Source of the DNA: an uncultured Planctomycetales bacterium | GTDB taxonomy: Bacteria > Omnitrophota > Gorgyraeia > Zapsychrales > JBDRMG01 | Reading direction: 5' to 3' | Length of the DNA: 64,000 nucleotides | Assembly (NCBI GenBank): GCA_964478715.1 | Contig: CAYZIY010000007.1 | Location: 20,220-84,219 of the forward strand | In this document: piece by piece, positions 31,040 through 52,815 of the stretch | Position numbering within the stretch: position 1 is the stretch's first letter | How the letters are laid out: each line of letters begins with the position of its first letter | Notes under the pieces: generated by a model | The model's input: the letters and a program-made list of their open reading frames with translations, nothing else | What the model was told of the DNA's origin: nothing | Databases searched by the model: none | Made by a program: the position numbers and the translations under genes

Positions 31040-32446
31040 TTGTTTGATCGGTATAATAAAAGAAAAATGCGAATATTAATATTCATCCTAATAAGCCTAT
31101 TAGTATCAAGCCTCATTCCGGAATACGGCTTTGGGCAAGATTCTTATCCCTACACCATCAAACGTCAAGAAGGTATCTCTCCCACTTATATTTGGCGTGA
31201 AAGTGTTGATTCCCTCAGGCGAAGTGTCGGTCACGTGATCCAGGATTTCGATTTGATTGTCAAAGAGAACGATCTCCTCAAGGAAGAAATTGTGTACATC
31301 CAGAAAGAAATCGAAGACGCCAAAAAAGAAAACGAGAGGTTACGTAATGAGCCTCCTCGATTAAAAAGCCTTATCCGGGAATCGGGGAAAATTATTCAAA
31401 AACTGGAAAATGACAAGAAATTCTTCAATGAGAAAATCAAAACCCTTCAAGATGAAGAGGCTTATTTGACTAAAGAACTCGCCCGTCTCGAAGAAGAAAA
31501 AATAAAATGGAGCCAACAGAAGCAAGATGCGCAAGACAATCAACAAAGCGCCAAGGAAAAATTGGAGTATGCCCGGAATTTGCTTAAGATCGAGATTAGC
31601 GATATGAAGAAAGAGATTGACAATTTGCAATCCGCTATACCGGAAACCCGTCAAGAGATCGAGCAGATTGACCAAAACATTACGCAAAGCAAACAAAAAT
31701 TGGCGGATTTGCAGACAGAGATTCGGGAAATCCAGTCTGGCAATCGGGATATCGAAGGAGAAATCGCTCGAATAAACAGAGAGATGGATATCATCGAACG
31801 CGACATCAACAGGCAACAAACGAAGAATGAACGCTTAAAGTATTCCGAGAATCGATTAACCGATCGTCTCGAAAATGAGCGTCAGAATTGGCAGCAGCAG
31901 CTTGACAATCTTTCTGGAGATCTGCAAGCTGAGCGGGCCGAAATTCCTGAAATTCCAGCGGCTCTTGAGAGGGAAGAAGAAAAGATTAACGAAAGACGCA
32001 AAGACATTCAAGTGGAAATTAACTCCTATCAATCCAAGGTGGCTGATTTAACAGACGCTCTGCAAGACCTGAAGCGGGAAAAAAGCATGGCGGAAGCTCT
32101 TCTGGCCGAGAACCGCCGGGCCCGTCAAGAAACCATGGACCAGGGCGAGGATATTGATCTAACACCGTTTCTGGAATCCCACGAGTTTGATAATATTCAG
32201 GAAGCCATGGCCTATGCCTATGCCCATCAGGATCTTTACGAAAAAGCGATTGAAAAATACAAAGAGGCCTTAGAGGCAGGAGCGGATCCCAAGAATGTTT
32301 ATTTTAATCTCGGGTACATTTATTATCGCATGGGAAATCTGAAATACGCTTTGCATTATTATAAGAAATCTTATGCTCAAGACCGCAGCGACAAGGAAGC
32401 TCTTGCCAATATTGAACTGATCAAACAAGAGATGAGGAACCGCTGA
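31040..32446 (+). CDS. Membrane-anchored coiled-coil protein with C-terminal TPR repeats
   Basis: N-terminal TM/signal, about 300 aa of heptad-rich lysine/glutamate/glutamine sequence, C-terminal TPR-like YEKAIEKYKEALEAGADPKNVYFNLGYIYYRMGNLKYALHYYKKS. Confidence 0.5.
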   Translation: MFDRYNKRKMRILIFILISLLVSSLIPEYGFGQDSYPYTIKRQEGISPTYIWRESVDSLRRSVGHVIQDFDLIVKENDLLKEEIVYIQKEIEDAKKENERLRNEPPRLKSLIRESGKIIQKLENDKKFFNEKIKTLQDEEAYLTKELARLEEEKIKWSQQKQDAQDNQQSAKEKLEYARNLLKIEISDMKKEIDNLQSAIPETRQEIEQIDQNITQSKQKLADLQTEIREIQSGNRDIEGEIARINREMDIIERDINRQQTKNERLKYSENRLTDRLENERQNWQQQLDNLSGDLQAERAEIPEIPAALEREEEKINERRKDIQVEINSYQSKVADLTDALQDLKREKSMAEALLAENRRARQETMDQGEDIDLTPFLESHEFDNIQEAMAYAYAHQDLYEKAIEKYKEALEAGADPKNVYFNLGYIYYRMGNLKYALHYYKKSYAQDRSDKEALANIELIKQEMRNR

Positions 32447-32582
32447 GGCGGCTCTTCGTTTTCCTGCCGAAGAGATGACTGGCCCGGGGAAAGGGCCGGA
32501 ATCAGGGAACCTATTGACGCGAAAGACCCACCTGGGTTACAATAACTTATTCTTGAAAAAGCAATCAATCAAGGGGGATAAT

Positions 32583-33068
32583 ATGGATGAGATACTCGAA
32601 GTTTTAACCCAAGATGCCCGTCGTACATCGGCGGAGATCGCCAGATTAACCGGAAAGACGGAGCAGGCGGTCAAAAAAGCGATCAAAAACTATGAAAAAA
32701 ACGGTACGATTGTGAAATATAAAACCGTGATCAACCGGGAGCTGGCGGAAGATGAGGGTGCTTTTGTCCAGGCGCTGATTGAGGTGAGCATTACCCCGCA
32801 AAAAAATGTCGGATTCGATTATATCGCCGAGAGGATTTACAGCTTTCCGGAAGTCAAGAGCTGCTATCTTCTTTCGGGAACCTATGATTTGCTCTTGATC
32901 GTGGAAGGCCAAAATATCCAGACGGTGGCGAATTTTGTTGCCTCCAAGCTTTCTCCCATGGAAAATGTGAGAGCGACGACCACACATTTTCTATTAAAAA
33001 AATATAAAGAAGACGGACATATTTTGAAAAAATCCAAACCGAAAGGAAGATTAAACATTTCCTATTAA
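32583..33068 (+). CDS. Lrp/AsnC-family transcriptional regulator
   Basis: HTH (ARRTSAEIARLTGKTEQAVKKAIKNYEKNG) plus RAM domain. RBS AAGGGGGATAAT-ATG. The ORF-track start at 32475 is an upstream extension. Confidence 0.8.
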   Translation: MDEILEVLTQDARRTSAEIARLTGKTEQAVKKAIKNYEKNGTIVKYKTVINRELAEDEGAFVQALIEVSITPQKNVGFDYIAERIYSFPEVKSCYLLSGTYDLLLIVEGQNIQTVANFVASKLSPMENVRATTTHFLLKKYKEDGHILKKSKPKGRLNISY

Positions 33069-33091
33069 TCTACGATTATTAAGGATTTCTA

Positions 33092-34249
33092 TTGATGGTG
33101 ATATCAAAAAAAGTAAATCAAATCCCCCCGTCGGGCATTCGGGAATTCTTCGATCTGGTTTTAACAATGAAAAATGTCATTTCGTTGGGCGTCGGAGAGC
33201 CTGATTTCGTGACCCCCTGGCGAATCAGGGAAAAAGCCATTTATGCGATCGAAAAGGGATATACGTCTTACACATCCAACCAGGGATTGATTGAGCTAAG
33301 AACACAAATTGCCTCTTTTCTGCGTCATCGCTACGGAATATCTTACAATCCTCAAAACGAAATTTTAATTACGGTTGGAGTGAGCGAAGGCATGGATTTG
33401 GTTGTGCGCTCTCTTGTTGATCCCGGCGATAAAGTGATGATCCCTCAGCCGTGCTATGTTTCCTATGCGCCCGAAGTGGAACTGGCCGGCGGAAAGCCTG
33501 TTACCATTGAGACCAGTGCCGATAACGGCTTTAAATGTACGCCTGAACTTGTTAAAAAAAGCTATCGAGAAGGCGTTAAGGCTCTTATCCTGAACTATCC
33601 GGCCAATCCAACGGGAACGTCTTATTCTAAGAAAGAACTTAGCGACCTGTGCAGGATTTTTAAAAAACTTAATCTTTTTGTGATTAGCGATGAAATTTAT
33701 GATGAATTGACTTATGATTTTCAGCACATTCCGCTGGCCGTATTTCCGGGGATGAAAGAGAGAGTGATTACTCTCAATGGTTTTTCCAAAGGATACGCGA
33801 TGACAGGTTTTCGAATCGGGTGGGCTTGCGGGAACCGCCAAATTATTTCGGCGATGACAAAAATCCATCAATATACCATGATGTGCGTTCCTATCATAAG
33901 CCAAATGGCCGGCATCGAGGCCCTCAAGCATGGACAGCGCGATGTCGCTGACATGAAAAGGGAATATATGCGACGCCGGCGGTTCATTGTCGCTGCCTTA
34001 AATGACATCGGCCTGGATTGCCATATGCCGCAGGGGGCTTTCTATGCCTTTCCGTCTATTAAAAGGACAAAAATGAAATCTTTGGATTTTGCCAAAGATC
34101 TTCTAAAAGAACAAAAAGTCGCCCTCGTGCCTGGCGTGGCCTTTGGGCCTTCAGCTGAAGGATATGTCAGGATTTCTTACGCTTCCAGTTATGAAAATCT
34201 CAAAGAAGCTGTTTCAAGAATTGACCGCTATCTTCAAAGAAAAAAATAG
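33092..34249 (+). CDS. Class I/II pyridoxal-phosphate aminotransferase (aspartate/aromatic family)
   Basis: GVGEPDF, NPTGT and SFSKGYAMTGFRIGW (PLP lysine) motifs. Confidence 0.85.
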   Translation: MMVISKKVNQIPPSGIREFFDLVLTMKNVISLGVGEPDFVTPWRIREKAIYAIEKGYTSYTSNQGLIELRTQIASFLRHRYGISYNPQNEILITVGVSEGMDLVVRSLVDPGDKVMIPQPCYVSYAPEVELAGGKPVTIETSADNGFKCTPELVKKSYREGVKALILNYPANPTGTSYSKKELSDLCRIFKKLNLFVISDEIYDELTYDFQHIPLAVFPGMKERVITLNGFSKGYAMTGFRIGWACGNRQIISAMTKIHQYTMMCVPIISQMAGIEALKHGQRDVADMKREYMRRRRFIVAALNDIGLDCHMPQGAFYAFPSIKRTKMKSLDFAKDLLKEQKVALVPGVAFGPSAEGYVRISYASSYENLKEAVSRIDRYLQRKK

Positions 34250-34263
34250 GGTGGCATCATCTC

Positions 34264-34656
34264 ATGAGGAATCCGCATAAAAAAACAGAAGATCTCGACT
34301 TTGAAATTTCTTTTTATGAAGGAATTATAAGAAATTCTCCCGGCTTTGTTCAGGCCTTGGCCGCCTTGGGGGATCTCTATACTAAGGCTGGACGCTATCA
34401 ACAGGGATTGGCTATTGATCAACGGTTGATTCTTCTTTGTCCCGACGATCCGATTGTGCACTATAATCTGGCCTGCAGCTATTCACTCTGCGGGAATTTG
34501 CCTCAAGCCTTGGAGGCCTTAAAGAGGGCTGTCGAATTTGGCTATGATGATTTTAAATATATGATGAAAGATGAAGACTTGAAGTCTTTAATGGAAGATT
34601 CTCAATTCAAGGACTTCATTCAGAAAATGGCCACGCAGAAAAACATGCAATTATGA
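34264..34656 (+). CDS. TPR-repeat protein (130 aa)
   Basis: Tandem TPR-like helices (ALAALGDLYTKAGRYQQGL..., HYNLACSYSLCGNLPQALEALKRAVEFGY). Confidence 0.5.
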   Translation: MRNPHKKTEDLDFEISFYEGIIRNSPGFVQALAALGDLYTKAGRYQQGLAIDQRLILLCPDDPIVHYNLACSYSLCGNLPQALEALKRAVEFGYDDFKYMMKDEDLKSLMEDSQFKDFIQKMATQKNMQL

Positions 34657-35786
34657 CACAAGCCAATCAGCATCCCGAAGCCAAACAGTATCATGCGATC
34701 AAAAACCGTCTGTTTTTTGTTCATTTAGGCCTTAATGTCTTATTTCTTGTTCTATTTTTCTTAAGCGGTTTTAGTGAACAAATTCGCTCAATGGCTTTTG
34801 GTTTGAGCAACAATTATTATTTGGGTAATGCGATTTATTTGATGGGTTTCTTTGCCATCCTTTTACTCATCAATCTTCCTTTAGATATCTATGAGGGATT
34901 TTTTCTGGAACATCGCTACCAGCTTTCTAACCAGGCTTTTTTATCCTGGTCAATCGATGAAATGAAAAAGGCCCTTTTAAGCGGCCTGATTATGTTGATT
35001 GCCATTGAAGTTGTATATTTCTTCCTACGAGCTTTTCCCAATCAGTGGTGGCTGTTAGCGACTTTTTTCTGGCTTTTCTTTAGCTTGATTCTGGCCCGTT
35101 TGGTGCCCACTGTTATTCTTCCTCTGTTTTACAAATATAAAGATTTCGACAATGCGCAAATTAAGGGGCGCATTATCAGTCTTTTTCAGAAAGTCGGTCT
35201 GAAGCTGAAAGATATCTATCTTATCGATTTCTCATCCAAGACAAAGAAGGTTAATGCCATGGTCTGCGGCCTGGGGCGCAATCGGCGGGTTATTTTAACC
35301 GATAATCTTTTAAATCTCTTCAGCGACGGAGAGATTGAGAGCATTGTGGCTCATGAAATGGGTCATTATGTTCACAAGGATATCATCAAATTAACAGCTT
35401 TTAATACATTGTTGACCTTTGGCAGTTTTTATCTGATGAATTTGGTTTTAAAACATACATTGAAATTTACACATATCAGTTCTGTCGATGATATTGCCTT
35501 TTTGCCTGTCATGGCCCTGGTTTTTCTTCTGTTTAGTTTTCTGATGATGCCGCTAGCCAATGCTTTCAGCCGTTTTCTGGAAGAGCAGGCCGATCGGTAT
35601 TCTCTTTTCTTGACGCAGAATGCGAAAGATTTCATGGCGGCCTTTGAGAAGCTGGGAGAGATGAATTTATCTGAATTCCAGCCCTCGGCCTTGGTAGAAA
35701 TGCTGTTTTATGACCACCCCCCGCTATCTAAGCGAATCCAAATGTGCCGGAAATTTCAGAATCAAGCATTGCATCCGAATTTATGA
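34653..35786 (+). CDS. M48-family (Ste24/HtpX-like) integral-membrane zinc metalloprotease
   Basis: Multi-TM with HEMGHYVHKD (HExxH) and downstream E in LEEQADRYS. Confidence 0.8.
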   Translation: MTQANQHPEAKQYHAIKNRLFFVHLGLNVLFLVLFFLSGFSEQIRSMAFGLSNNYYLGNAIYLMGFFAILLLINLPLDIYEGFFLEHRYQLSNQAFLSWSIDEMKKALLSGLIMLIAIEVVYFFLRAFPNQWWLLATFFWLFFSLILARLVPTVILPLFYKYKDFDNAQIKGRIISLFQKVGLKLKDIYLIDFSSKTKKVNAMVCGLGRNRRVILTDNLLNLFSDGEIESIVAHEMGHYVHKDIIKLTAFNTLLTFGSFYLMNLVLKHTLKFTHISSVDDIAFLPVMALVFLLFSFLMMPLANAFSRFLEEQADRYSLFLTQNAKDFMAAFEKLGEMNLSEFQPSALVEMLFYDHPPLSKRIQMCRKFQNQALHPNL

Positions 35787-37786
35787 ATCGCTTAAAGCAA
35801 AAAGTTGAGAATGAAAAAAGACGCTATCTGCGGCTTGCGCATGTTTATCCTGTGGAATTTGCTTTTTGCAATTTGCAGGGCCAACTCATTTCTTCCTGGC
35901 AGCAGGGTTTTACCTGCAATATCAGTCAGGGCGGTATTTGTCTTAATGCGCAGGCCAGTTCTCTGGTAGTCGATCATCTAAAGGAAGAAAAAGAGCGTTA
36001 TCTTCGGCTCAAGATCAGTATTCCGCTTTTCTCTCCGCCGGTTGAGGCATTTTCTAAGGTTGCCTGGATGGCTCAGCAGACTGAATCTTATCCGAGAGGA
36101 TTTCTTATCGGTCTGCAGTTTTTGGAGATCCAGAAATCGCAAGCTAGACGGATGCTTAGATATGCGCGGATTATTAAACGCACGCCTCTGGTGATGGCCG
36201 CATTTATCTGTATTTTGTTTACTTTTCTAGCCGGGCATACCTACATGAATTATCGTCTGCGGATAAGTAATGAAGAACTGGTTCAGCAGTTTGTGTTCTT
36301 GCAAAGCGACCAGACGAAAAACCAGAACCGCCTGAAGACCATTCAAGGTGAGAAAACACTTCTGGCAGAAACCATCAATGATTATAATGCTGATATTCGC
36401 GATCTCAAGCGGGGGCTTGATCGCGCTCTTGGCGAAATTAATAGAAAGACACAGAACCAGAAAGTATTGCGCGATCAAGCCAATCAGCTGACACGAACTA
36501 TCGCCGAGCTTCAAACCAGGATTCAGCTTTTGGAGAGTGAAAAGGCCCCTTTAGCCAATCAGCTTGAGATTCTTGTGAAAAACGAAGAAATGATCCAGGA
36601 CCGATTAAGACTCATGGAAAGAAATAAGCGGGACTTAGAGAATGAAATTGTTGCCCAGATGATTCAGTGGCTTAAAAATCATCAAAATCAGTCGACTGGA
36701 CTGATTTCGAGTTTCGAGGGGCCGGTCGGTATCATCAAGCATTGGGCTTTTATTTACGATCAGGCCCTGGCCGCGAATGTCTTTCTTATTGATAATGATC
36801 TTAAGGCTTGCAAAAAGATTCTCAATTTCTTTGCCCGGAAAATGCAAAACGATTTTAATGGTTTTCATAATGCCTATTACAGCGATACTGAAGATATTGC
36901 CGAATTTACGATTCACAGCGGTCCCAATATTTGGGCTGGCATGGCTATTGCCCAGTATGCGGATCAAACAGGAGATCGCCAGTATTTGCCTTTGGCGCAA
37001 AAGATTGCCGATTGGCTTATTGCTTTACAGGAACAGGATAAAGACGGAGGTTTACGCGGAGGACCGGACGTTTTCTGGTATGCAACTGAGCATAATCTAG
37101 ATGCCTATGCTTTTCTTGACATGATGGCGAAGCTGACCGGTGAGGAAAAATATTATTTGGCCCAGAAAAAGATTTTGAGCTGGCTTGAAAAACATGCCAT
37201 GGTGGCTCATGAAAACGATCACCGCAAGCCGCCGGTAAAAAGAGGCCGCGGAGACGCCACAATCGCCACCGACACATTTGCCTGGTCCCTGGCTGCGATC
37301 GGCCCTCCCGTCTTGAGACAATTACAGATGGATCCTGAGGCGATCATGGCATTTGCCGAAAAACACTGCAAAGTCCAAACAAGATTTCGCCGACCCAGCG
37401 GAGTAGTTATTGATGTAGAAGGTTTTGATTTTTCCAAACCGGCTCATGTGGCTCGCGGTGGCATTCTTTCTCCGGAATGGACTTCTCAGATGATTGTCTC
37501 GTTTCAAATTTTGGCCGATGATTTCCAAAAGGAAAATGATTTAACCAAGACTGTTTTTTACCGTCAAAAAGCCGTCCACTATCTCAATGAACTCAATAAA
37601 CTGATTATATCGAGTCCTTCTCCGCGCGGGTTGGGTGAAGGATGTCTTCCTTATGCGACTGTCCCGCAGGCTGATACAGGTCACGGCTGGCGCACGCCCA
37701 AAGGGACAGATACCGGATCGATCGCTGGTACGGCCTATATGATTATGGCTATTTATGGCTACAATCCGTTGGAGCTGGGAGGCTAA
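35783..37786 (+). CDS. PilZ-domain / TM / coiled-coil / (alpha/alpha)6-barrel-like multidomain protein
   Basis: N-terminal RRYLRL...NISQGGICL (PilZ RxxxR and D/NxSxGG), a second PilZ-like half, a TM helix, about 150 aa of coiled coil, and a C-terminal region with six-hairpin-glycosidase-like composition. ATGA overlap with the M48 gene. Confidence 0.5.
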   Translation: MNRLKQKVENEKRRYLRLAHVYPVEFAFCNLQGQLISSWQQGFTCNISQGGICLNAQASSLVVDHLKEEKERYLRLKISIPLFSPPVEAFSKVAWMAQQTESYPRGFLIGLQFLEIQKSQARRMLRYARIIKRTPLVMAAFICILFTFLAGHTYMNYRLRISNEELVQQFVFLQSDQTKNQNRLKTIQGEKTLLAETINDYNADIRDLKRGLDRALGEINRKTQNQKVLRDQANQLTRTIAELQTRIQLLESEKAPLANQLEILVKNEEMIQDRLRLMERNKRDLENEIVAQMIQWLKNHQNQSTGLISSFEGPVGIIKHWAFIYDQALAANVFLIDNDLKACKKILNFFARKMQNDFNGFHNAYYSDTEDIAEFTIHSGPNIWAGMAIAQYADQTGDRQYLPLAQKIADWLIALQEQDKDGGLRGGPDVFWYATEHNLDAYAFLDMMAKLTGEEKYYLAQKKILSWLEKHAMVAHENDHRKPPVKRGRGDATIATDTFAWSLAAIGPPVLRQLQMDPEAIMAFAEKHCKVQTRFRRPSGVVIDVEGFDFSKPAHVARGGILSPEWTSQMIVSFQILADDFQKENDLTKTVFYRQKAVHYLNELNKLIISSPSPRGLGEGCLPYATVPQADTGHGWRTPKGTDTGSIAGTAYMIMAIYGYNPLELGG

Positions 37787-40606
37787 ATGCGAAAGAAGGA
37801 AATAACAGAAAATTTAACTATGTGTTTGTTTGCGATTTTTTTTCTGTCTAGCGCAAAACCTCTCATGGCCTTTGAGCATCCTGCTTATACAATCAAGGCC
37901 CAACTGGATGTCTCAAGCAAACAGCTTGAGGTTCAACAAAAGGTTCGTTTCAGTAATCAATCGGCTAGAGCAGTCGAAGCCATCTATTTCCATGTTTATC
38001 CCAACCGAATTTTCTCAAAGGCCGAAAAAGTTTTCATGCAGCAGTATGCCAGTTATTTCAAAGTTGATCCCTTTCCGGATGGTTTTCAGCAGGGAAAGGT
38101 GGTATTCGGTTCGATTTTCGCAGAAAACCGGAATCTAAACTTTTCTTACGAAGGCGAAGATCAAACGCTTCTGAAAGTCGAATTGGACCAAGTTCTGGCA
38201 CCCGGTTCATCCGTAGAGGTCAATATGGAATATCAGCTAAGAATTCCCCATTCCTACGGTCGTTTTGGCTGGCATAATGATATTATTGCTCTCTCGCGAT
38301 TTTATCCGATTTTAGCTGTTTTATCCGATGAGGGATGGAATAAAAATCCATTCTATCCCTTTCACCGGCCCTTTTATTCTGAAGCCGCTTATTATCAGGT
38401 GCAACTGACTATGCCGTCCTCATGGGAAGCGATTCATAGCGGGGTTCTCAAAAAAGAAAAACAAAACGGCGCCAATAAACAGCTCGTGATTGAATCGGAC
38501 CATCCTATTCGCGAATTTACTGTTGCGCTAAGCCCTGATTACCGTTTAATCGAAAAAAAAATTGAGGGTGTTACGGTGAAGTCGTTTTACCTTCCAGGTG
38601 ATCGAGACCGTGCCAGTGAGGCCCTTTCCCATGCCGCGGATCTTATGAAATTTTATGCGGATCTTTTCAAACCTTATCCTTATGCGCAATTTAGCATCGC
38701 GCCGGTTTATCTGGGTTATGGTGGAGAACAGATGTCCAATATGATCTTGATCGATACCCGGGTTTATCAACTCCCCAGAATTCTCGATCGCCATTTCGAA
38801 TTTTTGATTGCGCACGAAACCGGTCATCAATGGTTTTATAATCTGGTGGGGATTGACGAGTTTCATCACATGTGGCTGGAAGAAGGGGTCAATTCCTATT
38901 TTATTTTGCAATATCTCGAAGATAAATACGGAGACAATGCGAAAGTCATCGAATGGCCCAGGCCGCTTGAGTGGTTTCTGCCCAGTTTTTCTTTCCGGCG
39001 CGCTCGCGATTTCCGATATAAAATGATTGCCCGCACGAAGATGAATTATTCGCTCTCCGGAAAACTATCGAGCTTCAAAGAGCCCAGCAGTATTTTTTCG
39101 ATTGCTTATGGAAAAGGATCGGCGGTTGTGGCTATGCTCAAAAGCGTTGCGGGCAGAGAGGCTTTTAGGAAAATTTTCCAGAGAATTTTTAAGCAATATT
39201 CCTATAGGAATCTTAGCTTGAGAGAATTTCAAGATATCTGCCATCATGAAAGCCAAATAGATTTGGAATATTTCTTTGATCAATGGTTGACGACTACCCA
39301 TAACTGTGATTATGCGGTCAATGGCATCAAAGACGCGAAGGTATTGATTGAAAACAGAGCCTCAATCGAAATGCCGCTTGATGTAAGAATCGATTATCAG
39401 GACGGGAATTCAAAGACAATCCAAACCGGCTTTGATGATCAGGTCAAAAATGTATTTGTCAATCCGCGAAAAAAAATTAAGAGAATTATTCTGGATCCGC
39501 AAAAAGAAATCTTGGATATTGACCGTACCAATAATATTTGGCCGCGACGTATTCACATCAAGGTGGTGCCTTTGTATTTGCCTGTTCACGATTTAGCCAT
39601 CACGCTTCCCGAAGATTCTTATAATGTGGTGATCGGTCCTGAGACAAGCGGCGGCGGCTTAGGCTTAAAGGCCTCTTTGCAGAAACCCATGGACTGGATG
39701 AGTTATGCGGCGACAACGTATGAATTCCGTGAGAGCATCCAGCACACTCGAGGGGGCTTTGTGCTCAAGAATGTCGCCCATCAGATGAATTCTCTAGGAT
39801 TTGAACTATTCAATAAATCCGATTATGACGGCGGTGATCAGGATTTGGTCGGCGGGAAGGTTTTTTTCAGAAGAGAATTAAAACTGGCTGCCTATAGCCT
39901 GAGTGATCTCAATGATCATGTGAGCCTTTATTTTCTGCGCAATCAGAGCCTCAATCGCGGGGCCTTAAGCGCGCAGGAAGATGAGCGCAATATTTCTTAT
40001 TTGAAAAAGAATGAAGCGATTTGGGGTACGGCGCTTCATCTGGCTTCCTGTGGGCCTCATCCGGATCCGCGTCAGGGCTATCGGGCCGATCTTATTTTAG
40101 AGAACTCAAACCATATTCTGGGAGGCACACAGTTCTTTTACAGAGGATCGGCAGATTTCAGTTATTACTATCCGTTGGCATTTAAATCCAAGCTGGCTTT
40201 TCGTCTGAAATACGGCTGGGGGTTTCCCGACGATAAAAATCTCTATGAACTCGGAGGATGGGACGGGTTAAGAGGATATGACCGTAAGACTTTGCGCGGC
40301 TCGCATGTGGCCCTGGGCGCTTTAGAGCTTCGTTTTCCGCTTCTTCAGAATATCAATGTATCTTTTGCGGATAATATTTTGCGGCTGGATGAAATCTCGG
40401 GCGTTGTTTTTGCCGAGACCGGCCAGAATTGGTTTGATGATATGGATGAAACAACTTTAAGAAAAGATGCCGGCGGGGGACTGCGTTTTATTTTCAGTGT
40501 CGGTTCATTTCTTGAAAAAGTGATGGTTCGAGTGGATGTGGCCCAGGCGATTAATGACAGCAGCGAAGAGACAAAAGTGTGGGCTGGCGTGAATCATGCT
40601 TTCTAA
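37787..40606 (+). CDS. Secreted M1-family zinc aminopeptidase domain fused to a C-terminal Omp85/bacterial-surface-antigen beta-barrel
   Basis: Signal peptide. HETGHQWFYNLVGIDEFHHMWLEEG equals the gluzincin HExxH-x18-E with WLxEG. The C-terminal block YYPLAFKSKLAFRLKYGWGF...ELGGWDGLRGY...ALELRFPL matches the PF01103 barrel motifs. Confidence 0.6.
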   Translation: MRKKEITENLTMCLFAIFFLSSAKPLMAFEHPAYTIKAQLDVSSKQLEVQQKVRFSNQSARAVEAIYFHVYPNRIFSKAEKVFMQQYASYFKVDPFPDGFQQGKVVFGSIFAENRNLNFSYEGEDQTLLKVELDQVLAPGSSVEVNMEYQLRIPHSYGRFGWHNDIIALSRFYPILAVLSDEGWNKNPFYPFHRPFYSEAAYYQVQLTMPSSWEAIHSGVLKKEKQNGANKQLVIESDHPIREFTVALSPDYRLIEKKIEGVTVKSFYLPGDRDRASEALSHAADLMKFYADLFKPYPYAQFSIAPVYLGYGGEQMSNMILIDTRVYQLPRILDRHFEFLIAHETGHQWFYNLVGIDEFHHMWLEEGVNSYFILQYLEDKYGDNAKVIEWPRPLEWFLPSFSFRRARDFRYKMIARTKMNYSLSGKLSSFKEPSSIFSIAYGKGSAVVAMLKSVAGREAFRKIFQRIFKQYSYRNLSLREFQDICHHESQIDLEYFFDQWLTTTHNCDYAVNGIKDAKVLIENRASIEMPLDVRIDYQDGNSKTIQTGFDDQVKNVFVNPRKKIKRIILDPQKEILDIDRTNNIWPRRIHIKVVPLYLPVHDLAITLPEDSYNVVIGPETSGGGLGLKASLQKPMDWMSYAATTYEFRESIQHTRGGFVLKNVAHQMNSLGFELFNKSDYDGGDQDLVGGKVFFRRELKLAAYSLSDLNDHVSLYFLRNQSLNRGALSAQEDERNISYLKKNEAIWGTALHLASCGPHPDPRQGYRADLILENSNHILGGTQFFYRGSADFSYYYPLAFKSKLAFRLKYGWGFPDDKNLYELGGWDGLRGYDRKTLRGSHVALGALELRFPLLQNINVSFADNILRLDEISGVVFAETGQNWFDDMDETTLRKDAGGGLRFIFSVGSFLEKVMVRVDVAQAINDSSEETKVWAGVNHAF

Positions 40607-40720
40607 ATGAGGACACAGCTTGCGGATTTCTTGTGCAGATTACTTGTGATCTTTCGCTTCCTGAATGCCAGCAGGCGCTCGCTTTATAAGTAACGAGCTG
40701 ATCGAAGGGAGAATGGAATT

Positions 40721-41137
40721 ATGAAGTCATATCGCGAAGAACTCTGGTTTAATACAAAGTCTCGTCGAGACTATATCAATATAACCGATACAGTGCAAGG
40801 CATTGTGACCAAAAGCGGCATCCAGGAAGGCTTGGTTTTGGTCAATGCCATGCATATCACGGCCAGTGTTTATATTAATGATGATGAAAGCGGATTGATC
40901 CAGGATTTTGACGACTGGCTGGAAGGATTGGCTCCGCATGAACCGGTGACGCACTATCGTCATAATGTCGGTGAGGATAACGGCGATGCCCACTGCAAAC
41001 GCCAGATCATGGGCCGTGAAGTAGTGGTAGCTGTTACCAAAGGCAAGCTGGATTTCGGCCCTTGGGAACAGATTTTTTACGGGGAGTTCGACGGCAGAAG
41101 ACGTAAAAGAGTCCTTGTGAAAGTCATCGGAGAATAA
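40721..41137 (+). CDS. YjbQ/UPF0047 family protein (second paralogue)
   Basis: Same family pattern as 26164-26580 ([21 protein letters not shown]...[11 protein letters not shown]). Confidence 0.8.
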
Positions 41138-41196
41138 GGACAGGGAATTTTTTATTTGCATGAATGAAAGACGATAGATAAAATGGGAGTATATTT

Positions 41197-42099
41197 ATGA
41201 GCTTGCTTGTTTTAGGAACAGTCGCCTTAGATCATGTCAAAACACCCAGCGGGAATAAAAAAGATCTGTTGGGTGGTTCAGCCGCCCATTTTGCCATGGC
41301 GGCCCGTCTTTTTACCAAGGTCCATATGGTGGGCATTATCGGCTGGGATTTCCCGACCCGCCATTTAAATTACCTGAAAAAAAAAGAAATCGATATTGCT
41401 TCCTTAAAGAAAACATCAGGAAAAAGCTTCCGCTGGATGGGGGAATACAAAAAGGAAAATCTCAACCAGGCCCTCACTCTCAAAACTGAACTGGGTGTTC
41501 TCGCCGATTATGACCCCTGGATTGCGGCTCGCCAGCAGTCTCTTAAGGATATTTTTCTGGCCAATATTGATCCGGATATGCAGATGAATCTTTTACAGAA
41601 ACTGAAGAAGGTGCACTTTGTCGGTTGTGACAGTATGAATTTATGGATTCATCATAAGAGAAAATCACTCAAGAAATTACTGAAAAAAGTGGATCTTTTT
41701 GTCGTTAATGATCAGGAAGCCCGTGATCTTTCCGGCGAAATGAATTTAATCAAAGCGGCCAAGCTGTTGAGAAAGATGGGCCCGAGTCTTATCGTCATTA
41801 AAAAAGGGGAGCATGGCGTTTATTTTTATTGTGACCGTTTTCATTTTTCTTATCCGGCTTATCCGATTGAAAAAGTAATTGATCCTACCGGAGCGGGAGA
41901 CACCTTTGCCGGAGGGCTGATGGGTTATCTGACCAAAGTGAAAAAACATAACAACCCATCTTTAAAAAAGGCCGTTTTATATGCCACAACCGTGGCTTCA
42001 TTTAATGTGGAGGGATTTGGATTAAGCAGAACTTCGCGCCTGTCGATGGCACGCGTAAATCGAAGGCTTAAGGAATATCAACAGTTCATTTCTTTTTAA
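41197..42099 (+). CDS. PfkB-family carbohydrate/nucleoside kinase
   Basis: Ribokinase fold with DPTGAGDTFAGG anion-hole motif. Confidence 0.8.
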   Translation: MSLLVLGTVALDHVKTPSGNKKDLLGGSAAHFAMAARLFTKVHMVGIIGWDFPTRHLNYLKKKEIDIASLKKTSGKSFRWMGEYKKENLNQALTLKTELGVLADYDPWIAARQQSLKDIFLANIDPDMQMNLLQKLKKVHFVGCDSMNLWIHHKRKSLKKLLKKVDLFVVNDQEARDLSGEMNLIKAAKLLRKMGPSLIVIKKGEHGVYFYCDRFHFSYPAYPIEKVIDPTGAGDTFAGGLMGYLTKVKKHNNPSLKKAVLYATTVASFNVEGFGLSRTSRLSMARVNRRLKEYQQFISF

Positions 42100-42105
42100 A
42101 ACTTT

Positions 42106-43122
42106 ATGGCTTCTTATTCTTTTGAAAAAAATCTCAACGAGACAGCTCAGCTGATCCGTAAGGCGAAAAAAATCATCATTGCCTGTCATATGAATCCTGA
42201 TGGGGATGCCCTGGGATCCCTGCTGGGGCTGGGAATTGCCTTAAGACGGATTAAGAAGAAAGTGATTCTTCTTTGTCCGGATAAGGTCCCCAGCCGGTAT
42301 ATCGCCTTGCCCTGCGCCAGGCAGGTTCGTCAAAAATATTCTCAAGGGGCCGATGTGGCGATTAGCGTGGATTGCGGCTCACTGGCCCAGCTTTCCCGCC
42401 TAGAGCAGGCCTTTCATCAGTCCAGGCGGATTATCGAAATTGATCATCATGAATATCGCACCCGGTTTGGCGACATCCAGCTTGTGGATCGCAAAAAGGC
42501 CTCGGTGGGCGAGATCATTTATTTGCTGGCCAGAAAAATGAGGATCAAGATCACCAAGCCGGTGGCCGAATGCCTGCTTACGTCGATGTTGGTTGAAACC
42601 TGCTCTTTTTCCCGTCCGGATGTCAAAGAATCCACTTTCGAGATTTGCTCTCATTTGATGCAGTCTGGCGCGGATTTTATGAAAATCAGCAATCATTATT
42701 ACTGGAAGAAGAAACTTTCCGTTCTGCGTTTAAGCGGTTTATGTTTTGTTCGGATTCGTATAAGCGTCAGCAACCAGCTGGCCTGGTCCATCCTTACTCA
42801 AAAAGATTTCGAAGATTATCAGGGTGGTCAGGAAGATGTGGATTCGGTTCCGGATGATATGCTCACCATAGATAGCGTGCAGGTGACTCTGCTTTTCAGG
42901 GAGATAGACAATAATATGCTGCGCGTTAGCCTGCGCTCTAAAGGAAAAATCGATGTCGGGTATTTGGCCAGTATTTACGGTGGCGGCGGACATCAGAATG
43001 TGGGCGGCTGTCGCATTCATAACAATAAGAAAATGATTGAGCGCTTTATCGAACAGGCCGGCCAGCTTATTCAATACAAGAAAACGATTCCAATCCATCC
43101 TGCCCAAAGTGCCATCCGATAA
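42106..43122 (+). CDS. nrnA: DHH/DHHA1 phosphoesterase (NrnA-type oligoribonuclease / pAp phosphatase)
   Basis: DHH motifs (HMNPDGDALGS, DHH) and GGGH in the DHHA1 domain. Confidence 0.8.
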   Translation: MASYSFEKNLNETAQLIRKAKKIIIACHMNPDGDALGSLLGLGIALRRIKKKVILLCPDKVPSRYIALPCARQVRQKYSQGADVAISVDCGSLAQLSRLEQAFHQSRRIIEIDHHEYRTRFGDIQLVDRKKASVGEIIYLLARKMRIKITKPVAECLLTSMLVETCSFSRPDVKESTFEICSHLMQSGADFMKISNHYYWKKKLSVLRLSGLCFVRIRISVSNQLAWSILTQKDFEDYQGGQEDVDSVPDDMLTIDSVQVTLLFREIDNNMLRVSLRSKGKIDVGYLASIYGGGGHQNVGGCRIHNNKKMIERFIEQAGQLIQYKKTIPIHPAQSAIR

Positions 43123-43123
43123 A

Positions 43124-44044
43124 ATGACAACACGCTGCGGTTTTGTTTCTATTGTGGGTCGGCCCAATGTCGGCAAATCCACGCTTTTAAATACCATTCT
43201 TAAAAGAAAAGTGGCGATTGTTTCCAAAATCCCCCAGACCACCCGTAATCAAATCCGGGGTATTTATAATGAAGAGCGCGGGCAGATTGTTTTTCTGGAT
43301 ACTCCGGGTATGCATTTAGCCAAAGACCGCCTGGATCAGATGATGAATAAAGACAGCCTGGCCACTTTAGAGGGAGCCGATTGCGTGATTCATGTGACAG
43401 ATCCGACCCGCGCCATTGGTCCGGAAGAGCGAATGGTTGTAGACCGCTTAAAGACTATTGAGGCGCCTGTGATTTTGGCTTTCAATAAAGCGGACTGTAA
43501 GCCGCGATTTATGGATCAGTATATTTCCTTGTGGGAGCAGGTGAAGCTCCGAAGCATTCAGGAATGTGACCATATGATTCTGCTTCCTATTTCGGCTAAG
43601 ACAGGCGTCAATATCGCGAAAATGATCGATCTAATTTTTGAAAAACTTCCCTCAAGCCCGCCCTTTTATCCGCTCACCCAATTTTCGGATATCCCTCAGC
43701 CTGTATGGATTGGCGATATTATTCGGGAAAAGTTCTTAGATTTGATGCGTCAGGAAATTCCCCATGCCCTGGCTGTGGTGATCGAAAACATGACCTTTAA
43801 AGCGAGTAAGGTTCTGGTCCTTCAGGTGGCCGTTTATGTAGAGCGGCCATCACAGAAAGAAATCGTGATCGGGAAAAAGGGTCAGATTTTGAAGAAAGTC
43901 GGCACAAAATCCCGTCAGGAACTCGAGCAGGAATTTAAACGCAAAATATTCTTGGAATTAAACGTGAAAGTCAAGAAAAACTGGCGGGACAATAGCGAAG
44001 TTCTCGAAAGATTAGGTTATGATTTGTTCTCTTCCCAGCAATGA
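43124..44044 (+). CDS. era: GTPase Era
   Basis: GRPNVGKSTLLN G1 motif, DTPG, NKAD, C-terminal KH domain. ATG one nucleotide after the nrnA stop. Confidence 0.9.
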   Translation: MTTRCGFVSIVGRPNVGKSTLLNTILKRKVAIVSKIPQTTRNQIRGIYNEERGQIVFLDTPGMHLAKDRLDQMMNKDSLATLEGADCVIHVTDPTRAIGPEERMVVDRLKTIEAPVILAFNKADCKPRFMDQYISLWEQVKLRSIQECDHMILLPISAKTGVNIAKMIDLIFEKLPSSPPFYPLTQFSDIPQPVWIGDIIREKFLDLMRQEIPHALAVVIENMTFKASKVLVLQVAVYVERPSQKEIVIGKKGQILKKVGTKSRQELEQEFKRKIFLELNVKVKKNWRDNSEVLERLGYDLFSSQQ

Positions 44045-44054
44045 TCCCCTGCTG

Positions 44055-46916
44055 TTACATTTCTTTCGGTTGAGTTAAGAGAATTTCGTCATCCGGGGTC
44101 AGAGCCAGCGGGTGATAATCCCAGGTATTTCCGCTTAAGGCCGAGGCGGCCGTGGCATTTAACGGCAGTTCCACAGAAAGAATTTCCGAAATAAAAACAA
44201 GGTCTCCCGGAGGTCGGCTACTTGAGAGCAGATAGCTGATATCGTAAATTTTTCTCGGCTCGCCATTAAAACTCAGCAAATCCCAGGGGGCCGCTTCTGT
44301 GACACCAAACGCCGATTGTCCTGACTGATCACGTCCGCGAACCCAGTAGGCGGAATGCCCCGAAAAATTATCTATTAAATTCTGTGGTTCCGGTGACAAT
44401 GCGCTGAAAGGAATAGGATTCTCCGTATATGACTGGTCCCAGTATCTGCTGTTGGGCTCAATCGGGCCGTGAAGAGGCCGGAATTCATTACCCAGCTGGA
44501 TGAAAGATCCGGTAACAACAGGTTCATTTTGATGCCAGCAGGATAAAGGATCTCCGCCGCAAGGCGGGGTTAAGTGATCTCCGGGATCGCTGTGAAAATT
44601 CCAGAGTTCTTCGGTGACATGCGGATCCCAGGCTCTGGGCCCAATAAGAGAGATATTATAATTAATCACATTGTTGCCAGAACTGTCTTCAACGGTCCCC
44701 TCGACGAAATTGGGCATTTGCGGCTCATCGGGATTTTCATCATCCGGAAACATATCATAAAGATAATTGTAGCCATCCTGGCCGTTTTCATCAAAGGCAT
44801 AATCGGTCTCAAAACCGGATCCTTCCGGTAGAGTGATATAGACAGCTGAAGCGGGATTGATAGGAGAGACTACTGTTTCTGCGTAAGGATAGTCTGGATG
44901 ATGATGCGGCATGCGCAGATAGCGGGGATAGCGAAAGCCTTCGCTTACTAAAAAGACATCATCGCTGACAATGGCGGCCGAGGGTTTTCGGGCATTTGTA
45001 TTGTAATGACCTTCCAGAATCAGATCGCCATGGATGACGAAGGTGGCTCCGTTGGGGGCACCGTCTTTTTGAGGGAGTTCTCCGGCATTATACACGGCAG
45101 CACCGACGTAATACTGCCTTTGATCCCCTTCGGATTCGATAAATTGTACGTCAGAAATATATAGCCCGTTTTCAGGCAGCCAGTCTGAAGAATCATTGGC
45201 CGCGCAGTCTTTCAAGGCCGACATGTTTGTTCGCAAAACTGTCATGGGAAGCCCGTCGACATGCCGGATAAAACTGCGCAGTTCAAAAAGGCTCTCTTCG
45301 TCTGATCCGCATTCTATCGGGGGAGCAATGGACCGATTCTCATAAGGGTTGTCAAAATCGAAACGCAGATCCGTATCATCGGTAACGGGAATTCCGTTTA
45401 CGCTGACTTCGAGGTAATAAGTACCGTTTTTTTCTTTGGCTGCGGCCACAAAGGCCTGGTCCGAATTTTTATTGAGAATCGAGTTCAGATTCATTTCAGG
45501 CGGGCTGATGGTGCTGACATCATCCTGGAACACTCCGGCGAGTCCTTCAATTCTATAAGGGGTATCTTCTCCGGAAGGATAATTTCGATTGATGCTTTCA
45601 CTGAAGGCAAAAAATTCCGGTTGCTTTTCGGAATCTGTCAACTGCATGCCGGTCACCCGCGGATCGCCCGGCGCATGACGGCCCATATACATGAATCTGT
45701 CATTGTAAGCGGTGCCAAAACGATTGGGGAGATAATAGTCGTTGATCTTGGGCATCGCCTCGTAATAATTTTCGTTATTGGAAGTTCCGTCGGCGCAGGT
45801 ATTTGTTGAATGGCAATTGATATCCTGCTGCCAGTACACATAGGCCCGGCTTTCTGACGACCCGTCCCAGGCCCCCGCATCAAACGGTGGATTTAAAAAT
45901 GGTGTCTGCGGCCAGGGCCAGATTGGCAGATTGTTGGATTCTTGGTCCCATTCGACGAATTTGCCTGTAGCGGTATCAAAGGCCAGCAAGCCCTGTCTGT
46001 CACCGGCATAATGGCCGTCCATTTTATTGATATAGTTTTCCTGATCCCACAGCCATCTATCTAGTGTATCGTTAGGTAAAATCAGAGGTCGGCGCAGATG
46101 GGGATAGATATTTGTATAATCATGACTATCGACTGCTCCTCCGCTGACAGGATCATATACCTGGCCGTCGATAAAATCATCAGGATGGACAAAGGGCGAG
46201 AAGGCATAGGAAATCTTTCCGGTGGCCTTAAGCTCATCCACGTTTTCGATGATGGTGTAATCATTCAAAAGGATATTGCCGTTAGTGTGGATTTTTCCGC
46301 CCTGGGCGTTAAGCAGCTGCCATCCGAGAGAGAGGTCTTCGTTGTTAAACAGGGCATATTGAAACATATCGGTGATTTCTATTTTCATGGCAAAAAGGCG
46401 GGTCACCGTATTATGAATGCCCAGAGCCAGGACATAGAGAGCGTTCTCATTGTCTTTACAATATGTTTTTAGGGCAAAAAGAGGATGGCCGTTTTCATCC
46501 AGCGCTCCGTAGTCAATAGAATCAATACCCCGGCTCACCAAATAAGGGAAATCATCAGCCGATAACTGGTGGTTAAATACAATACCGGGGATGTCGGAAT
46601 CTGTCGGGCAATTATCAACACAATGTTCAAGCGCGTTATTTTCGGTATTGAGAATATGGGTGGTGAATTCACCTGTGGATATCGATGCATTATTTTTGAT
46701 TTCATGATAGGCGTATTCTACGCCTTTACGGGCATGCAATTCCGCGGCCAAACTGTCATGCAGGATATGCCCTTGATTATTGCCCGAGACAGCCCGGGCA
46801 AAATTGGCCGCGGCATAGGTGACCACCAGGATCAAGACAGGATACAAAACCAGCGAGAAGGCGATGCCTTTTTGATTCTTTTTTCTTTGATCTTTTTTTA
46901 AAATTATTTGGCTCAT
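44055..46916 (-). CDS. Giant (953 aa) secreted or pilus-associated protein with a TadE/TadG-like pseudopilin N-terminus. Paralogue of 49211-52015
   Basis: N-terminal KGIAFSLVLYPVLILVVTYAAANFARAV resembles the TadE-like anchor (RGAAAVEFALVLPVLLLLLFGIVEFG). Shared blocks with the paralogue include KIHTNGNILLNDYTIIENV...FVHPDD, ILEGHYNTN...SEGFRYPRYL..HHPDYPYAE and a C-terminal PWDLLSFN. Confidence 0.6.
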   Translation of the reverse strand: MSQIILKKDQRKKNQKGIAFSLVLYPVLILVVTYAAANFARAVSGNNQGHILHDSLAAELHARKGVEYAYHEIKNNASISTGEFTTHILNTENNALEHCVDNCPTDSDIPGIVFNHQLSADDFPYLVSRGIDSIDYGALDENGHPLFALKTYCKDNENALYVLALGIHNTVTRLFAMKIEITDMFQYALFNNEDLSLGWQLLNAQGGKIHTNGNILLNDYTIIENVDELKATGKISYAFSPFVHPDDFIDGQVYDPVSGGAVDSHDYTNIYPHLRRPLILPNDTLDRWLWDQENYINKMDGHYAGDRQGLLAFDTATGKFVEWDQESNNLPIWPWPQTPFLNPPFDAGAWDGSSESRAYVYWQQDINCHSTNTCADGTSNNENYYEAMPKINDYYLPNRFGTAYNDRFMYMGRHAPGDPRVTGMQLTDSEKQPEFFAFSESINRNYPSGEDTPYRIEGLAGVFQDDVSTISPPEMNLNSILNKNSDQAFVAAAKEKNGTYYLEVSVNGIPVTDDTDLRFDFDNPYENRSIAPPIECGSDEESLFELRSFIRHVDGLPMTVLRTNMSALKDCAANDSSDWLPENGLYISDVQFIESEGDQRQYYVGAAVYNAGELPQKDGAPNGATFVIHGDLILEGHYNTNARKPSAAIVSDDVFLVSEGFRYPRYLRMPHHHPDYPYAETVVSPINPASAVYITLPEGSGFETDYAFDENGQDGYNYLYDMFPDDENPDEPQMPNFVEGTVEDSSGNNVINYNISLIGPRAWDPHVTEELWNFHSDPGDHLTPPCGGDPLSCWHQNEPVVTGSFIQLGNEFRPLHGPIEPNSRYWDQSYTENPIPFSALSPEPQNLIDNFSGHSAYWVRGRDQSGQSAFGVTEAAPWDLLSFNGEPRKIYDISYLLSSSRPPGDLVFISEILSVELPLNATAASALSGNTWDYHPLALTPDDEILLTQPKEM

Positions 46917-46942: not shown

Positions 46943-47812
46943 TCAGCGTATTTCTTTAGGCGCCGTTCGGCAGTCATCAGGGCAAGTTACTGATGTTTCA
47001 TCACCGCTGCAAATTCCGTCACCGCAGCGCGTGCAATCTTCCGGACAGCTTATGGCGGTTTCATCACCGTTACACATTTCGTCACCGCAATGTTGACAAT
47101 CTTGAGCACAATTGTCCGGGTCTTCATCAATGTCGCAGTTTCCATCGCCGCAAAAAGTTTGAGGCTCACAATCCGCGGGGCAGGTGGTTTCGCTCTCAGT
47201 GGCATCGCAGACGCCGTCACCGCAGACCACACACACGCCGCAGTCCTGAGGGCAGGAATAACAGTCTTCGGATTGGTCACATTTATCATTGCCGCAGAAC
47301 TCGCAAGTGGTCATATCTTGCTGACAGTTTTCGCAGGTTTCGTCGGGGTCTTCTATGCCGTTTCCGCAGTCCGGCAGTTCATCGCAGTCCTGGGGGCATT
47401 CTTCGAACGTTTCGCGGATATCGCATAGGCCGTTACCGCAGAGAATGGAGGTATAAATATTATCGATATCATTAAGCTGAACTTTTGTTTCGATGTTCAT
47501 GGCTCTGATAGAGGGATAAAGCTCTTGATCGGGTGTGATTTTGATGTGCACCGTCTGGTTACTCAAGTTTCGGGTTACTTCCAGAGAATCAGCCACACCC
47601 AGAGTGCGCCACGAGCGGATTTCGGGGTCAGGAACCTCATCCGCGCCGGTTTGCATCCCGCCGCCAGGTTGGCCGCCTCCGGGGAGGCTATCCGCCCAAG
47701 ATGTCGCCGATGCGAGGCTTATGCAAAACCAAACGATTAAAAAGAAAAAGACGCTAAAAAAGGAAAGATTTTTTGCTAGGATGTTTATCTTGAATGTTTT
47801 CATTGAGAGCAT
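46943..47812 (-). CDS. Secreted cysteine-rich repeat protein with about 7 tandem CGDGxC-x8-10-CPxDC modules
   Basis: Signal peptide MKTFKINILAKNLSFFSVFFFLIVWFCISLASA. Repeats include CGNGLCDIRETFEECPQDC, CGDGVCDATESETTCPADC, CGDGNCDIDEDPDNCAQDC and CGDGICSGDETSVTCPDDC. The ORF-track N-terminal extension into the upstream gene is probably spurious, so the start is uncertain (47812 or 47803). Confidence 0.55.
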   Translation of the reverse strand: MLSMKTFKINILAKNLSFFSVFFFLIVWFCISLASATSWADSLPGGGQPGGGMQTGADEVPDPEIRSWRTLGVADSLEVTRNLSNQTVHIKITPDQELYPSIRAMNIETKVQLNDIDNIYTSILCGNGLCDIRETFEECPQDCDELPDCGNGIEDPDETCENCQQDMTTCEFCGNDKCDQSEDCYSCPQDCGVCVVCGDGVCDATESETTCPADCEPQTFCGDGNCDIDEDPDNCAQDCQHCGDEMCNGDETAISCPEDCTRCGDGICSGDETSVTCPDDCRTAPKEIR

Positions 47813-47819
47813 GTTCTTT

Positions 47820-52783: not shown

Positions 52784-52815
52784 CGCACGACTCCTTTTAT
52801 GGTTTTCTTTCTGTC

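Follow-up and report, generated by a model that had tools for sequence, protein, structure and literature searches.

In a 64,000-nucleotide (nt) stretch of DNA, hereafter the window, we identified a complete gene encoding an M1-family zinc peptidase fused to an Omp85-type outer-membrane beta-barrel. The window comes from an uncultured bacterium labelled Planctomycetales in GenBank and assigned to the Omnitrophota in the GTDB lineage (assembly GCA_964478715.1, contig CAYZIY010000007.1, positions 20,220 to 84,219). The fusion gene occupies positions 37787..40606 (+) of the window, stop codon included, and encodes a single protein of 939 amino acids (aa). We propose, with a probability of about 60%, that this protein carries its peptidase in the periplasm, with the barrel as the tether to the outer membrane. 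The familiar role of Omp85 proteins is to insert outer-membrane proteins or to translocate them, and PlpD recently showed that an Omp85 scaffold can instead hold an enzyme beneath the outer membrane. The M1-Omp85 family would be a second, unrelated enzyme class on this scaffold, a zinc peptidase, and one lacking POTRA domains. It provides a concrete, testable case for the generality of the Omp85 barrel as an enzyme tether, and it draws attention to a part of the envelope that the uncultivated Omnitrophota share across the phylum and that seems never to have been studied.

The open reading frame (ORF) list of the window showed a single frame without interruption across the 939 codons. Its ATG at 37787 abuts the TAA of the gene upstream and is preceded, at a distance of 6 nt, by the Shine-Dalgarno sequence GGGAGG. 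Pfam searches of the protein matched Peptidase_M1 (PF01433) at residues 282-500, with a score of 81 bits (cut-off 27.7; E 1.2e-22), and the Omp85 family PF01103 at residues 669-908, with a score of 41.9 bits (cut-off 24; E 1.2e-10). Beyond these two, no Pfam family scored above its cut-off; POTRA families gave no match even at E<=1, and the patatin domain gave no match. NCBIfam returned only sub-threshold matches, namely to aminopeptidase N, LTA4 hydrolase, a generic Omp85 family and BamA (26.7 bits, cut-off 297), so the protein is not orthologous to any named protein. A sequence search of the PDB matched M1 aminopeptidases, with aminopeptidase A at the top (E 3e-12), and a profile of residues 505-939 matched the PDB sequences of Fusobacterium nucleatum BamA (E 1e-9) and TamA. 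An earlier interpretation of this DNA from its letters and translations (the sequence-only reading) had described one 939-aa secreted protein in which an M1 domain with the motif HETGH...WLEEG is joined to an Omp85 barrel with the motif ELGGWDGLRGY. The motifs lie at residues 343-367 and 821-831, respectively, and the Pfam results upheld both halves of that description, as did the structure prediction reported below.

Metagenome assemblies can yield rare false fusions, and for that reason we weighed the possibility that two separate genes had been joined by a frameshift, assembly or gene-calling artefact. We found nothing in favour of it. The frame is continuous with no stop codon, the gene calls of JGI, ENA and NCBI, made independently, concur on one gene, and a database protein from an independent assembly (P0001) is identical to the fusion. 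The same architecture recurred in 120 listed homologues (46-59% identity) and in 80 retained genome loci, and the linker at the junction ranks among the most conserved segments of the protein. We therefore ruled out an artefact, which the sequence-only reading had likewise not seen; what chance is left to it is negligible.

We then predicted the structure of the protein with AlphaFold2, using an alignment of 66 homologues as input; the residue counts given below refer to this alignment. The model was confident, with a mean predicted local distance difference test score (pLDDT) of 88.9 and a predicted template modelling score (pTM) of 0.89. The first 28 residues (37787..37870, +) read as a putative Sec signal peptide, MRKKEITENLTMCLFAIFFLSSAKPLMA, followed by FE. 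This call was made by eye and rests on a basic n-region, a hydrophobic core and small residues at -3/-1, the predicted cleavage falling between LMA and FE. Homologues have equivalent but poorly conserved N-termini, and residues 3-21 were modelled as an isolated helix with low pLDDT; the earlier proposal of secretion thus probably stands. The predicted mature chain begins with an all-beta domain (aa 33-270; 37883..38596, +) corresponding to the M1 N-terminal beta domain (domain I). It continues into a helical, thermolysin-like catalytic domain (domain II; aa 273-501; 38603..39289, +) and a small six-stranded beta-sandwich (aa 509-569; 39311..39493, +) that is probably M1 domain III. The sandwich is the most variable and indel-rich part of the protein, with the lowest conservation and 53 inserted alignment columns. 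Foldseek alignments to four-domain M1 enzymes reached about 580-600 columns. No helical domain was modelled after residue 501, and the barrel sits there instead.

Between the sandwich and the barrel lies a conserved linker of 42 residues (aa 570-611; 39494..39619, +), with the consensus DPxxxLLDIDRTNNxWPR...KPVPLY...PEDSY, which leads from the peptidase to barrel strand 1. Its pLDDT was about 88-93, and it contains just two 4-residue helices and one short strand; its conservation equals that of the catalytic domain, and it is nearly indel-free. The C-terminal 328 residues (aa 612-939; 39620..40603, +), ending in NHAF, were modelled as a 16-strand barrel whose strands span residues 612-935, close to the roughly 300 residues estimated earlier. 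The loop between strands 11 (802-813) and 12 (840-860) is L6 (aa 814-839, 26 residues; 40226..40303, +), which holds ELGGWDGLRGY and is the most conserved element of the barrel. The segment G827-L-R-G-Y831 was conserved in at least 62 of the 66 homologues; L828, R829 and G830 each occurred in 65, and Tyr or Phe occupied position 831 in 65. The strand-16 glycine G934 and the C-terminal aromatic F939, at the beta-signal position, were each at least 90% conserved.

The 16 strands, the PF01103 match above the gathering score and the (V/I/L)RG(Y/F) motif in L6 between strands 11 and 12 are the marks of the Omp85 superfamily, of which, judged by the modelled barrel and L6, the fusion is a member. 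At least one N-terminal POTRA domain (beta-alpha-alpha-beta-beta) also belongs to the definition of an Omp85 protein and is missing here: between the peptidase and strand 1 the model contains only the small all-beta sandwich and the short linker. This agrees with the Pfam result and with the earlier statement that POTRA domains are absent. In the model, the protein is made up of M1 domains I-III with a barrel of the BamA/TamA type in place of the helical lid domain IV, and without POTRA domains.

The active site bears the hallmarks of family M1. The zinc-binding and catalytic motif H343-E-T-G-H347...E366 (HEXXH-X18-E; 38813..38884, +) comprises HETGH at residues 343-347 and the glutamate of WLEEG at 363-367. 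H343, E344, H347 and E366 were invariant among the 66 homologues, with the correct 18-residue spacing, and E366 was the sole column invariant across 47 distant relatives. Tyr441 (39107..39109, +), in the motif Y-G-K-G, aligned with the Y of 'isYsKGs' in aminopeptidase A and corresponds to the transition-state-stabilising tyrosine of M1 enzymes; it was invariant as well (66/66). Because these five residues are invariant in 66 Omnitrophota sequences, the peptidase is very probably active. We ruled out a pseudo-enzyme reading for the Omnitrophota family on the same grounds. A distant M1-plus-barrel relative, P0286 (983 aa), carries ARQLARA where HEXXH would stand, and its catalytic Tyr is replaced by Cys. 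It retains the C-terminal region, an L6-like FRG motif and the terminal Phe, and is possibly a pseudo-peptidase version of the fusion.

Two features of M1 enzymes were not found in the fusion, namely the GXMEN exopeptidase motif and the C-terminal helical (ARM/HEAT-like) domain IV that caps the active site. Domain IV is typical of the family without being universal, and the two-domain M1 enzyme of Deinococcus radiodurans (PDB 6a8z) shows that it is dispensable. The Glu of GXMEN binds the free N-terminus of the substrate. At this site the fusion has a non-canonical motif, G312-G-E-Q-M-S-N318 (38720..38740, +), with G313 in 66, E314 in 64, Q315 in 66, M316 in 62, S317 in 52 and N318 in 64 of the 66 homologues. 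Where the canonical Glu falls depended on the alignment: phmmer paired GAMEN of aminopeptidase A with EQMSN, placing the Glu at S317 (Ser or Ala), and MAFFT with distant relatives paired it with Q315. The neighbouring, conserved E314 might act as a stand-in. More distant fusion families have GGNE(T/S)SN, WNGNECSG or an ordinary GGMEYP at the site. Since the lid domain IV is missing and GXMEN is altered, the enzyme is not necessarily restricted to aminopeptidase activity and might accept longer or internal sites. By its motif and fold (HEXXH-X18-E, catalytic Tyr, N-terminal beta domain and thermolysin-like domain, with PF01433 above the gathering score), the fusion belongs to peptidase family M1, although its exopeptidase motif is atypical and domain IV is missing.

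To determine how widely the fusion occurs, we searched for homologues at the level of 90%-identity clusters, which gave 487 hits, and scanned one genome per GTDB species, which gave 402 stretches encoding a relative. Both Pfam domains were present in all 120 of the 120 homologues listed, which are about 930-1090 aa long and 46-59% identical to the fusion (apart from the identical P0001) and, where named, come from Candidatus Omnitrophota. The best 80 of the 402 genome loci likewise spanned both domains, at 38-59% identity and with a few clipped at contig ends; nearly all are metagenome-assembled genomes (MAGs) of Omnitrophota. The relatives examined thus retain the fusion. When 1.84 billion cluster representatives were searched exhaustively with phmmer, 978 hits were obtained at E<=1e-30, including full-length single-stretch matches down to 26-31% identity. 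Among them were many proteins of 900-1050 aa with the M1 half and a C-terminal extension, as well as stand-alone M1 relatives of about 500 aa. Close homologues in the synteny seen in Omnitrophota genomes also occur in many MAGs (L002, L003, L007 and others) labelled 'uncultured Planctomycetales/Planctomycetia bacterium' and in one (L070) labelled 'Deltaproteobacteria'; these labels are probably placeholders or wrong taxonomy.

A second group of 1,068 hits (the P0276 family), some of them named 'M1 family aminopeptidase [Gemmataceae bacterium]', comprises orthologues of about 1050 aa from Gemmataceae (Planctomycetota), found at loci L083 and L084. We aligned the Omnitrophota C-terminal profile with a Gemmataceae protein using hhalign and obtained a match over 395 columns (probability 99.8%, E 1e-28) that took in the last part of the sandwich as well as the linker motif and the entire barrel. 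Because this group aligns over both linker and barrel, the fusion, by sequence comparison, spans at least two phyla of the PVC (Planctomycetes-Verrucomicrobia-Chlamydiae) group, the Omnitrophota and, through the Gemmataceae, the Planctomycetota. Pfam detected the Omp85 barrel in just 11 of the 120 listed members of the Gemmataceae family, and the barrel half of these orthologues is systematically overlooked in annotation. Taking the two sets of hits together (487 and 1,068), the family exceeds 1,500 sequence clusters at 90% identity. Peptidase, barrel and linker are about equally conserved, with a mean top-residue frequency of 0.62-0.71. The similar conservation of the halves and the linker, together with the near absence of indels in the linker, would fit selection acting on the fusion as a unit.

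The orientation of the peptidase relative to the outer membrane can be read from the barrel. To our knowledge, in every characterised Omp85 protein the segment N-terminal to strand 1 lies in the periplasm, and the chain passes from there into strand 1. Here the Omp85 strand register is fixed by where L6 lies, so strand 1 would start at the periplasmic face too. In this predicted register, the periplasmic turns T1, T3, T4 and T7 had conservation values of 0.77-0.90, compared with 0.44-0.58 for the short outer loops L1, L2, L7 and L8. Because the periplasmic turns outrank the outer loops in conservation and the linker is conserved and almost free of indels, the pattern suggests that the peptidase has a fixed docking on the periplasmic rim.

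We accordingly favour an arrangement, given here as a proposal, in which the fusion protein would be exported by Sec and lodged in the outer membrane. The C-terminal 328 residues would form a POTRA-less BamA/TamA-type barrel of 16 strands, acting chiefly as an outer-membrane anchor and scaffold. The N-terminal residues, about 540, would form a catalytically competent M1 zinc metallopeptidase consisting of domains I-III without the helical lid, and the short, rigid, conserved linker would keep it against the periplasmic rim of the barrel. Sitting right beneath the outer membrane, the enzyme would cleave periplasmic or envelope polypeptides.

The closest functional analogy is PlpD, the founding 'type Vd' protein, whose patatin domain was shown in 2024 to be exclusively periplasmic; the authors of that work regarded it as energetically implausible that a closed Omp85 barrel could let a folded enzyme through (PMC11116518). 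PlpD is the only experimentally studied enzyme-Omp85 fusion. Like PlpD and FplA, the patatin Omp85 proteins formerly called 'type Vd', the protein described here has an N-terminal hydrolase, a C-terminal 16-strand Omp85 barrel and a conserved L6. It differs from PlpD in its enzyme, an M1 zinc peptidase of about 540 aa rather than a patatin phospholipase of about 31 kDa, and in having no POTRA domain between enzyme and barrel, where PlpD has one; moreover, PlpD and FplA come from Proteobacteria and Fusobacteria, whereas the fusion family occurs in PVC phyla. By analogy, the fusion probably works as PlpD does, though it is not a PlpD member.

The sequence-only reading had proposed the opposite orientation, with a protease displayed at the cell surface. 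In this scenario, the Omp85 barrel would export its own M1 passenger in the manner of 'type Vd' proteins or of AaaA, yielding a cell-surface protease for obtaining nutrients or attacking prey or host. An enzyme placed N-terminal to a barrel is formally a type V layout, and the fusion lacks a POTRA domain that could keep the enzyme periplasmic. In addition, an autotransporter with a surface-tethered aminopeptidase exists: AaaA of Pseudomonas aeruginosa is described as an autotransporter with arginine-specific aminopeptidase activity (PMC3426542). However, the type Vd model has been overturned for PlpD itself, in which the enzyme domain is periplasmic (PMC11116518). The passenger here would be an alpha/beta zinc enzyme of about 540 residues and so would differ from beta-helical passengers, whose folding takes place outside the cell. 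The barrel retains the conserved L6 loop that fills the lumen. The linker is short, structured and conserved, with no long pore-spanning helix as in autotransporters, and the outer loops are short and variable. A periplasmic location is thus favoured by the topology of Omp85 proteins, by the pattern of conservation and by the precedent of PlpD, and we regard surface display as unlikely.

Three observations weigh against a periplasmic peptidase on a passive barrel. Many Omnitrophota have been proposed to be predators or parasites (PMC10066038), and for such a lifestyle a surface peptidase would make sense. The high conservation of L6 and of the strand-16 glycine suggests that the role of the barrel may go beyond passive anchoring. 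Finally, the loss of HEXXH in P0286, in which the C-terminal region is kept, hints at a non-catalytic role in some lineages.

Full-text literature searches found no paper on an M1-Omp85 fusion, which therefore appears to be undescribed in the literature, although the architecture is already visible in automatic annotation, both in precomputed Pfam domain pairs and in NCBI names. Proteins of this family are named 'M1 family aminopeptidase' in some database entries and 'BamA/TamA family outer membrane protein' in others, and each name covers only half of the protein. The earlier statement that such a fusion was not described for M1 enzymes appears right for the literature. The replacement of POTRA domains has precedents with patatin, 'Metallo' and WD40 domains (PMC4104836). 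Heinz and Lithgow (2014) distinguished ten Omp85/TpsB subfamilies, including patatin, PF00149 'Metallo', WD40 and 'noNterm' types, none of which has Peptidase_M1 (PMC4104836); their data set likely contained few or no Omnitrophota genomes. Like the fusion, the 'Metallo', WD40 and 'noNterm' subfamilies have a POTRA-less Omp85 barrel, in their case with an alternative N-terminal domain or none, and the same question of a periplasmic or exported domain was raised earlier for the 'Metallo' group (PMC4104836). Alternative N-terminal domains on Omp85 barrels are thus a known concept, and the fusion extends the enzyme-Omp85 class to a peptidase.

We also compared the fusion with other families related to one or the other half. 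With neither a POTRA nor a patatin domain, it is not BamA, TamA or PlpD, and it differs from BamA, TamA and Sam50 in its shorter outer loops too. Unlike the M1 aminopeptidases ERAP1, IRAP, APN, PepN, tricorn factor F3 and LTA4H, as well as 6a8z, it has GGEQMSN for GXMEN, and it shares only 12-17% identity with them; M1 aminopeptidases are soluble or held by a transmembrane helix, whereas the fusion would be anchored by a beta-barrel. AaaA is an M28 enzyme, surface-tethered through a classical 12-strand type Va barrel. The fusion resembles it in having an aminopeptidase-family enzyme covalently joined to an outer-membrane beta-barrel and departs from it in its 16-strand Omp85 barrel and, probably, in an opposite topology. 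Neither the 12-strand PF03797 barrel nor the pore-spanning helical linker that define type Va was found; instead, the protein has 16 strands, an Omp85 match and no long linker helix.

The fusion is the last gene of a four-gene cluster at 34264-40606 (+). The first gene (34264..34656, +) encodes a small TPR protein of 130 aa, recognised by Pfam TPR families and lacking a signal peptide, and its stop overlaps the start of the next gene in an ATGA at 34653-34656. The second (34653..35786, +) encodes an integral-membrane M48 zinc peptidase with Peptidase_M48_N and Peptidase_M48 matches, ending in another ATGA overlap at 35783-35786. This protein is of the Ste24/CAAX-prenyl-protease type, here in a bacterium, with five membrane helices in Peptidase_M48_N. 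Two of the four cluster products are predicted zinc peptidases, one per membrane. The third gene (35783..37786, +) encodes a protein of 667 aa with a PilZ match (E 1.9e-7) and meets the fusion gene at TAAATG. Its longest ORF begins at a GTG at 35744; we favour the ATG at 35783 on account of an identical database protein (P0121) and the ATGA overlap.

The AlphaFold2 model of the 667-aa protein (pLDDT 86.8) showed an N-terminal PilZ domain, one transmembrane helix, two very long helices (about 170 residues, coiled coil) and a C-terminal, predicted periplasmic (alpha/alpha)6 barrel. A PDB sequence search with this protein gave chance-level matches only, and the fold was recognised after structure prediction, when Foldseek matched (alpha/alpha)6 enzymes, including MmpH, GH76 mannanases and AGE-type epimerases, at E of about 1e-6. 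Judged from the model, the protein looks like a receptor for cyclic di-GMP (c-di-GMP) joined to a glycan-active-like domain. Its family is Omnitrophota-wide, with 537 homologues.

The two ATGA junctions and the TAAATG junction indicate that the four genes are translationally coupled, and we infer an operon from them. We also scanned 32000-44500 for promoters and terminators; the counts did not exceed those obtained with shuffled sequence, and for this reason we drew no transcription-unit boundaries from the scan. Same-strand homologues upstream of the fusion in the 80 loci included TPR proteins in 49, PilZ proteins in 33 and M48 peptidases in 22. The order TPR, M48, PilZ, M1-Omp85 was kept in the most divergent members (38-45% identity), and a ten-gene order was identical in an independent genome. 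A functional tie between the fusion and the PilZ and M48 proteins is therefore plausible in Omnitrophota. The Gemmataceae orthologues have unrelated neighbours. The wider neighbourhood in the window consists of housekeeping genes (AsnC, aminotransferase, YjbQ, PfkB, DHH and Era), which suggests a core envelope function over an accessory weapon. We considered an analogy of the upstream genes with BepA (M48 and TPR at BamA) and did not adopt it, as the TPR protein lacks a signal peptide and the M48 protein is the integral-membrane Ste24 type.

This coupling bears on another explanation, in which the barrel is itself a working Omp85 machine with a built-in protease. The barrel would handle substrates through its lateral seam and by binding beta-signals, and the peptidase would degrade or process the engaged polypeptides. 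Such an outer-membrane quality-control or processing device would combine a BamA-like receptor with a BepA-like activity and may cooperate with the M48 peptidase and the PilZ/(alpha/alpha)6 protein. The barrel is structurally nearest to the insertase clade of BamA, Sam50 and TamA; L6, G934 and the C-terminal aromatic are all conserved; and the rigid linker sets the position of the peptidase relative to the barrel. The gene is also coupled to genes for two further envelope proteins, including the membrane-embedded zinc peptidase, in an order that holds to the deepest divergences of the Omnitrophota family. Nevertheless, the POTRA domains that usually deliver substrates are absent, and the Gemmataceae orthologues have no TPR, M48 or PilZ neighbours, so the operon link is not universal. 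We consider a machine of this kind distinctly improbable.

A more speculative extension, to which we give still less credence, would make the four coupled genes a c-di-GMP-controlled, envelope-spanning processing module. Its members would be the cytoplasmic TPR protein, the inner-membrane Ste24-type M48 peptidase, the inner-membrane PilZ protein, whose coiled coil and glycan-enzyme-like (alpha/alpha)6 domain would lie in the periplasm, and the M1-Omp85 protein of the outer membrane. The barrel would serve as a gated receptor or conduit passing polypeptides, such as stalled outer-membrane proteins or outbound glycoproteins, to the tethered M1 peptidase. If true, this would add to the Omp85 proteins a functional class that is new and restricted to PVC bacteria. 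The tethered periplasmic peptidase with a barrel serving chiefly as its anchor is the reading we retain.

Downstream of the cluster, the window contains a block of minus-strand ORFs at 44055-46916, 46943-47968, 49211-52015 and 52055-53712 (-). Two of their products are 953 and 934 aa long, and the block gave no Pfam match at E<=1e-3 or 1e-4. It adjoins a gene for a Pretoxin-HINT domain protein (47820-48905), and two related genomes (L081 and L082) carry weak homologues of the 953-aa ORF together with Hint-domain genes at the same position.

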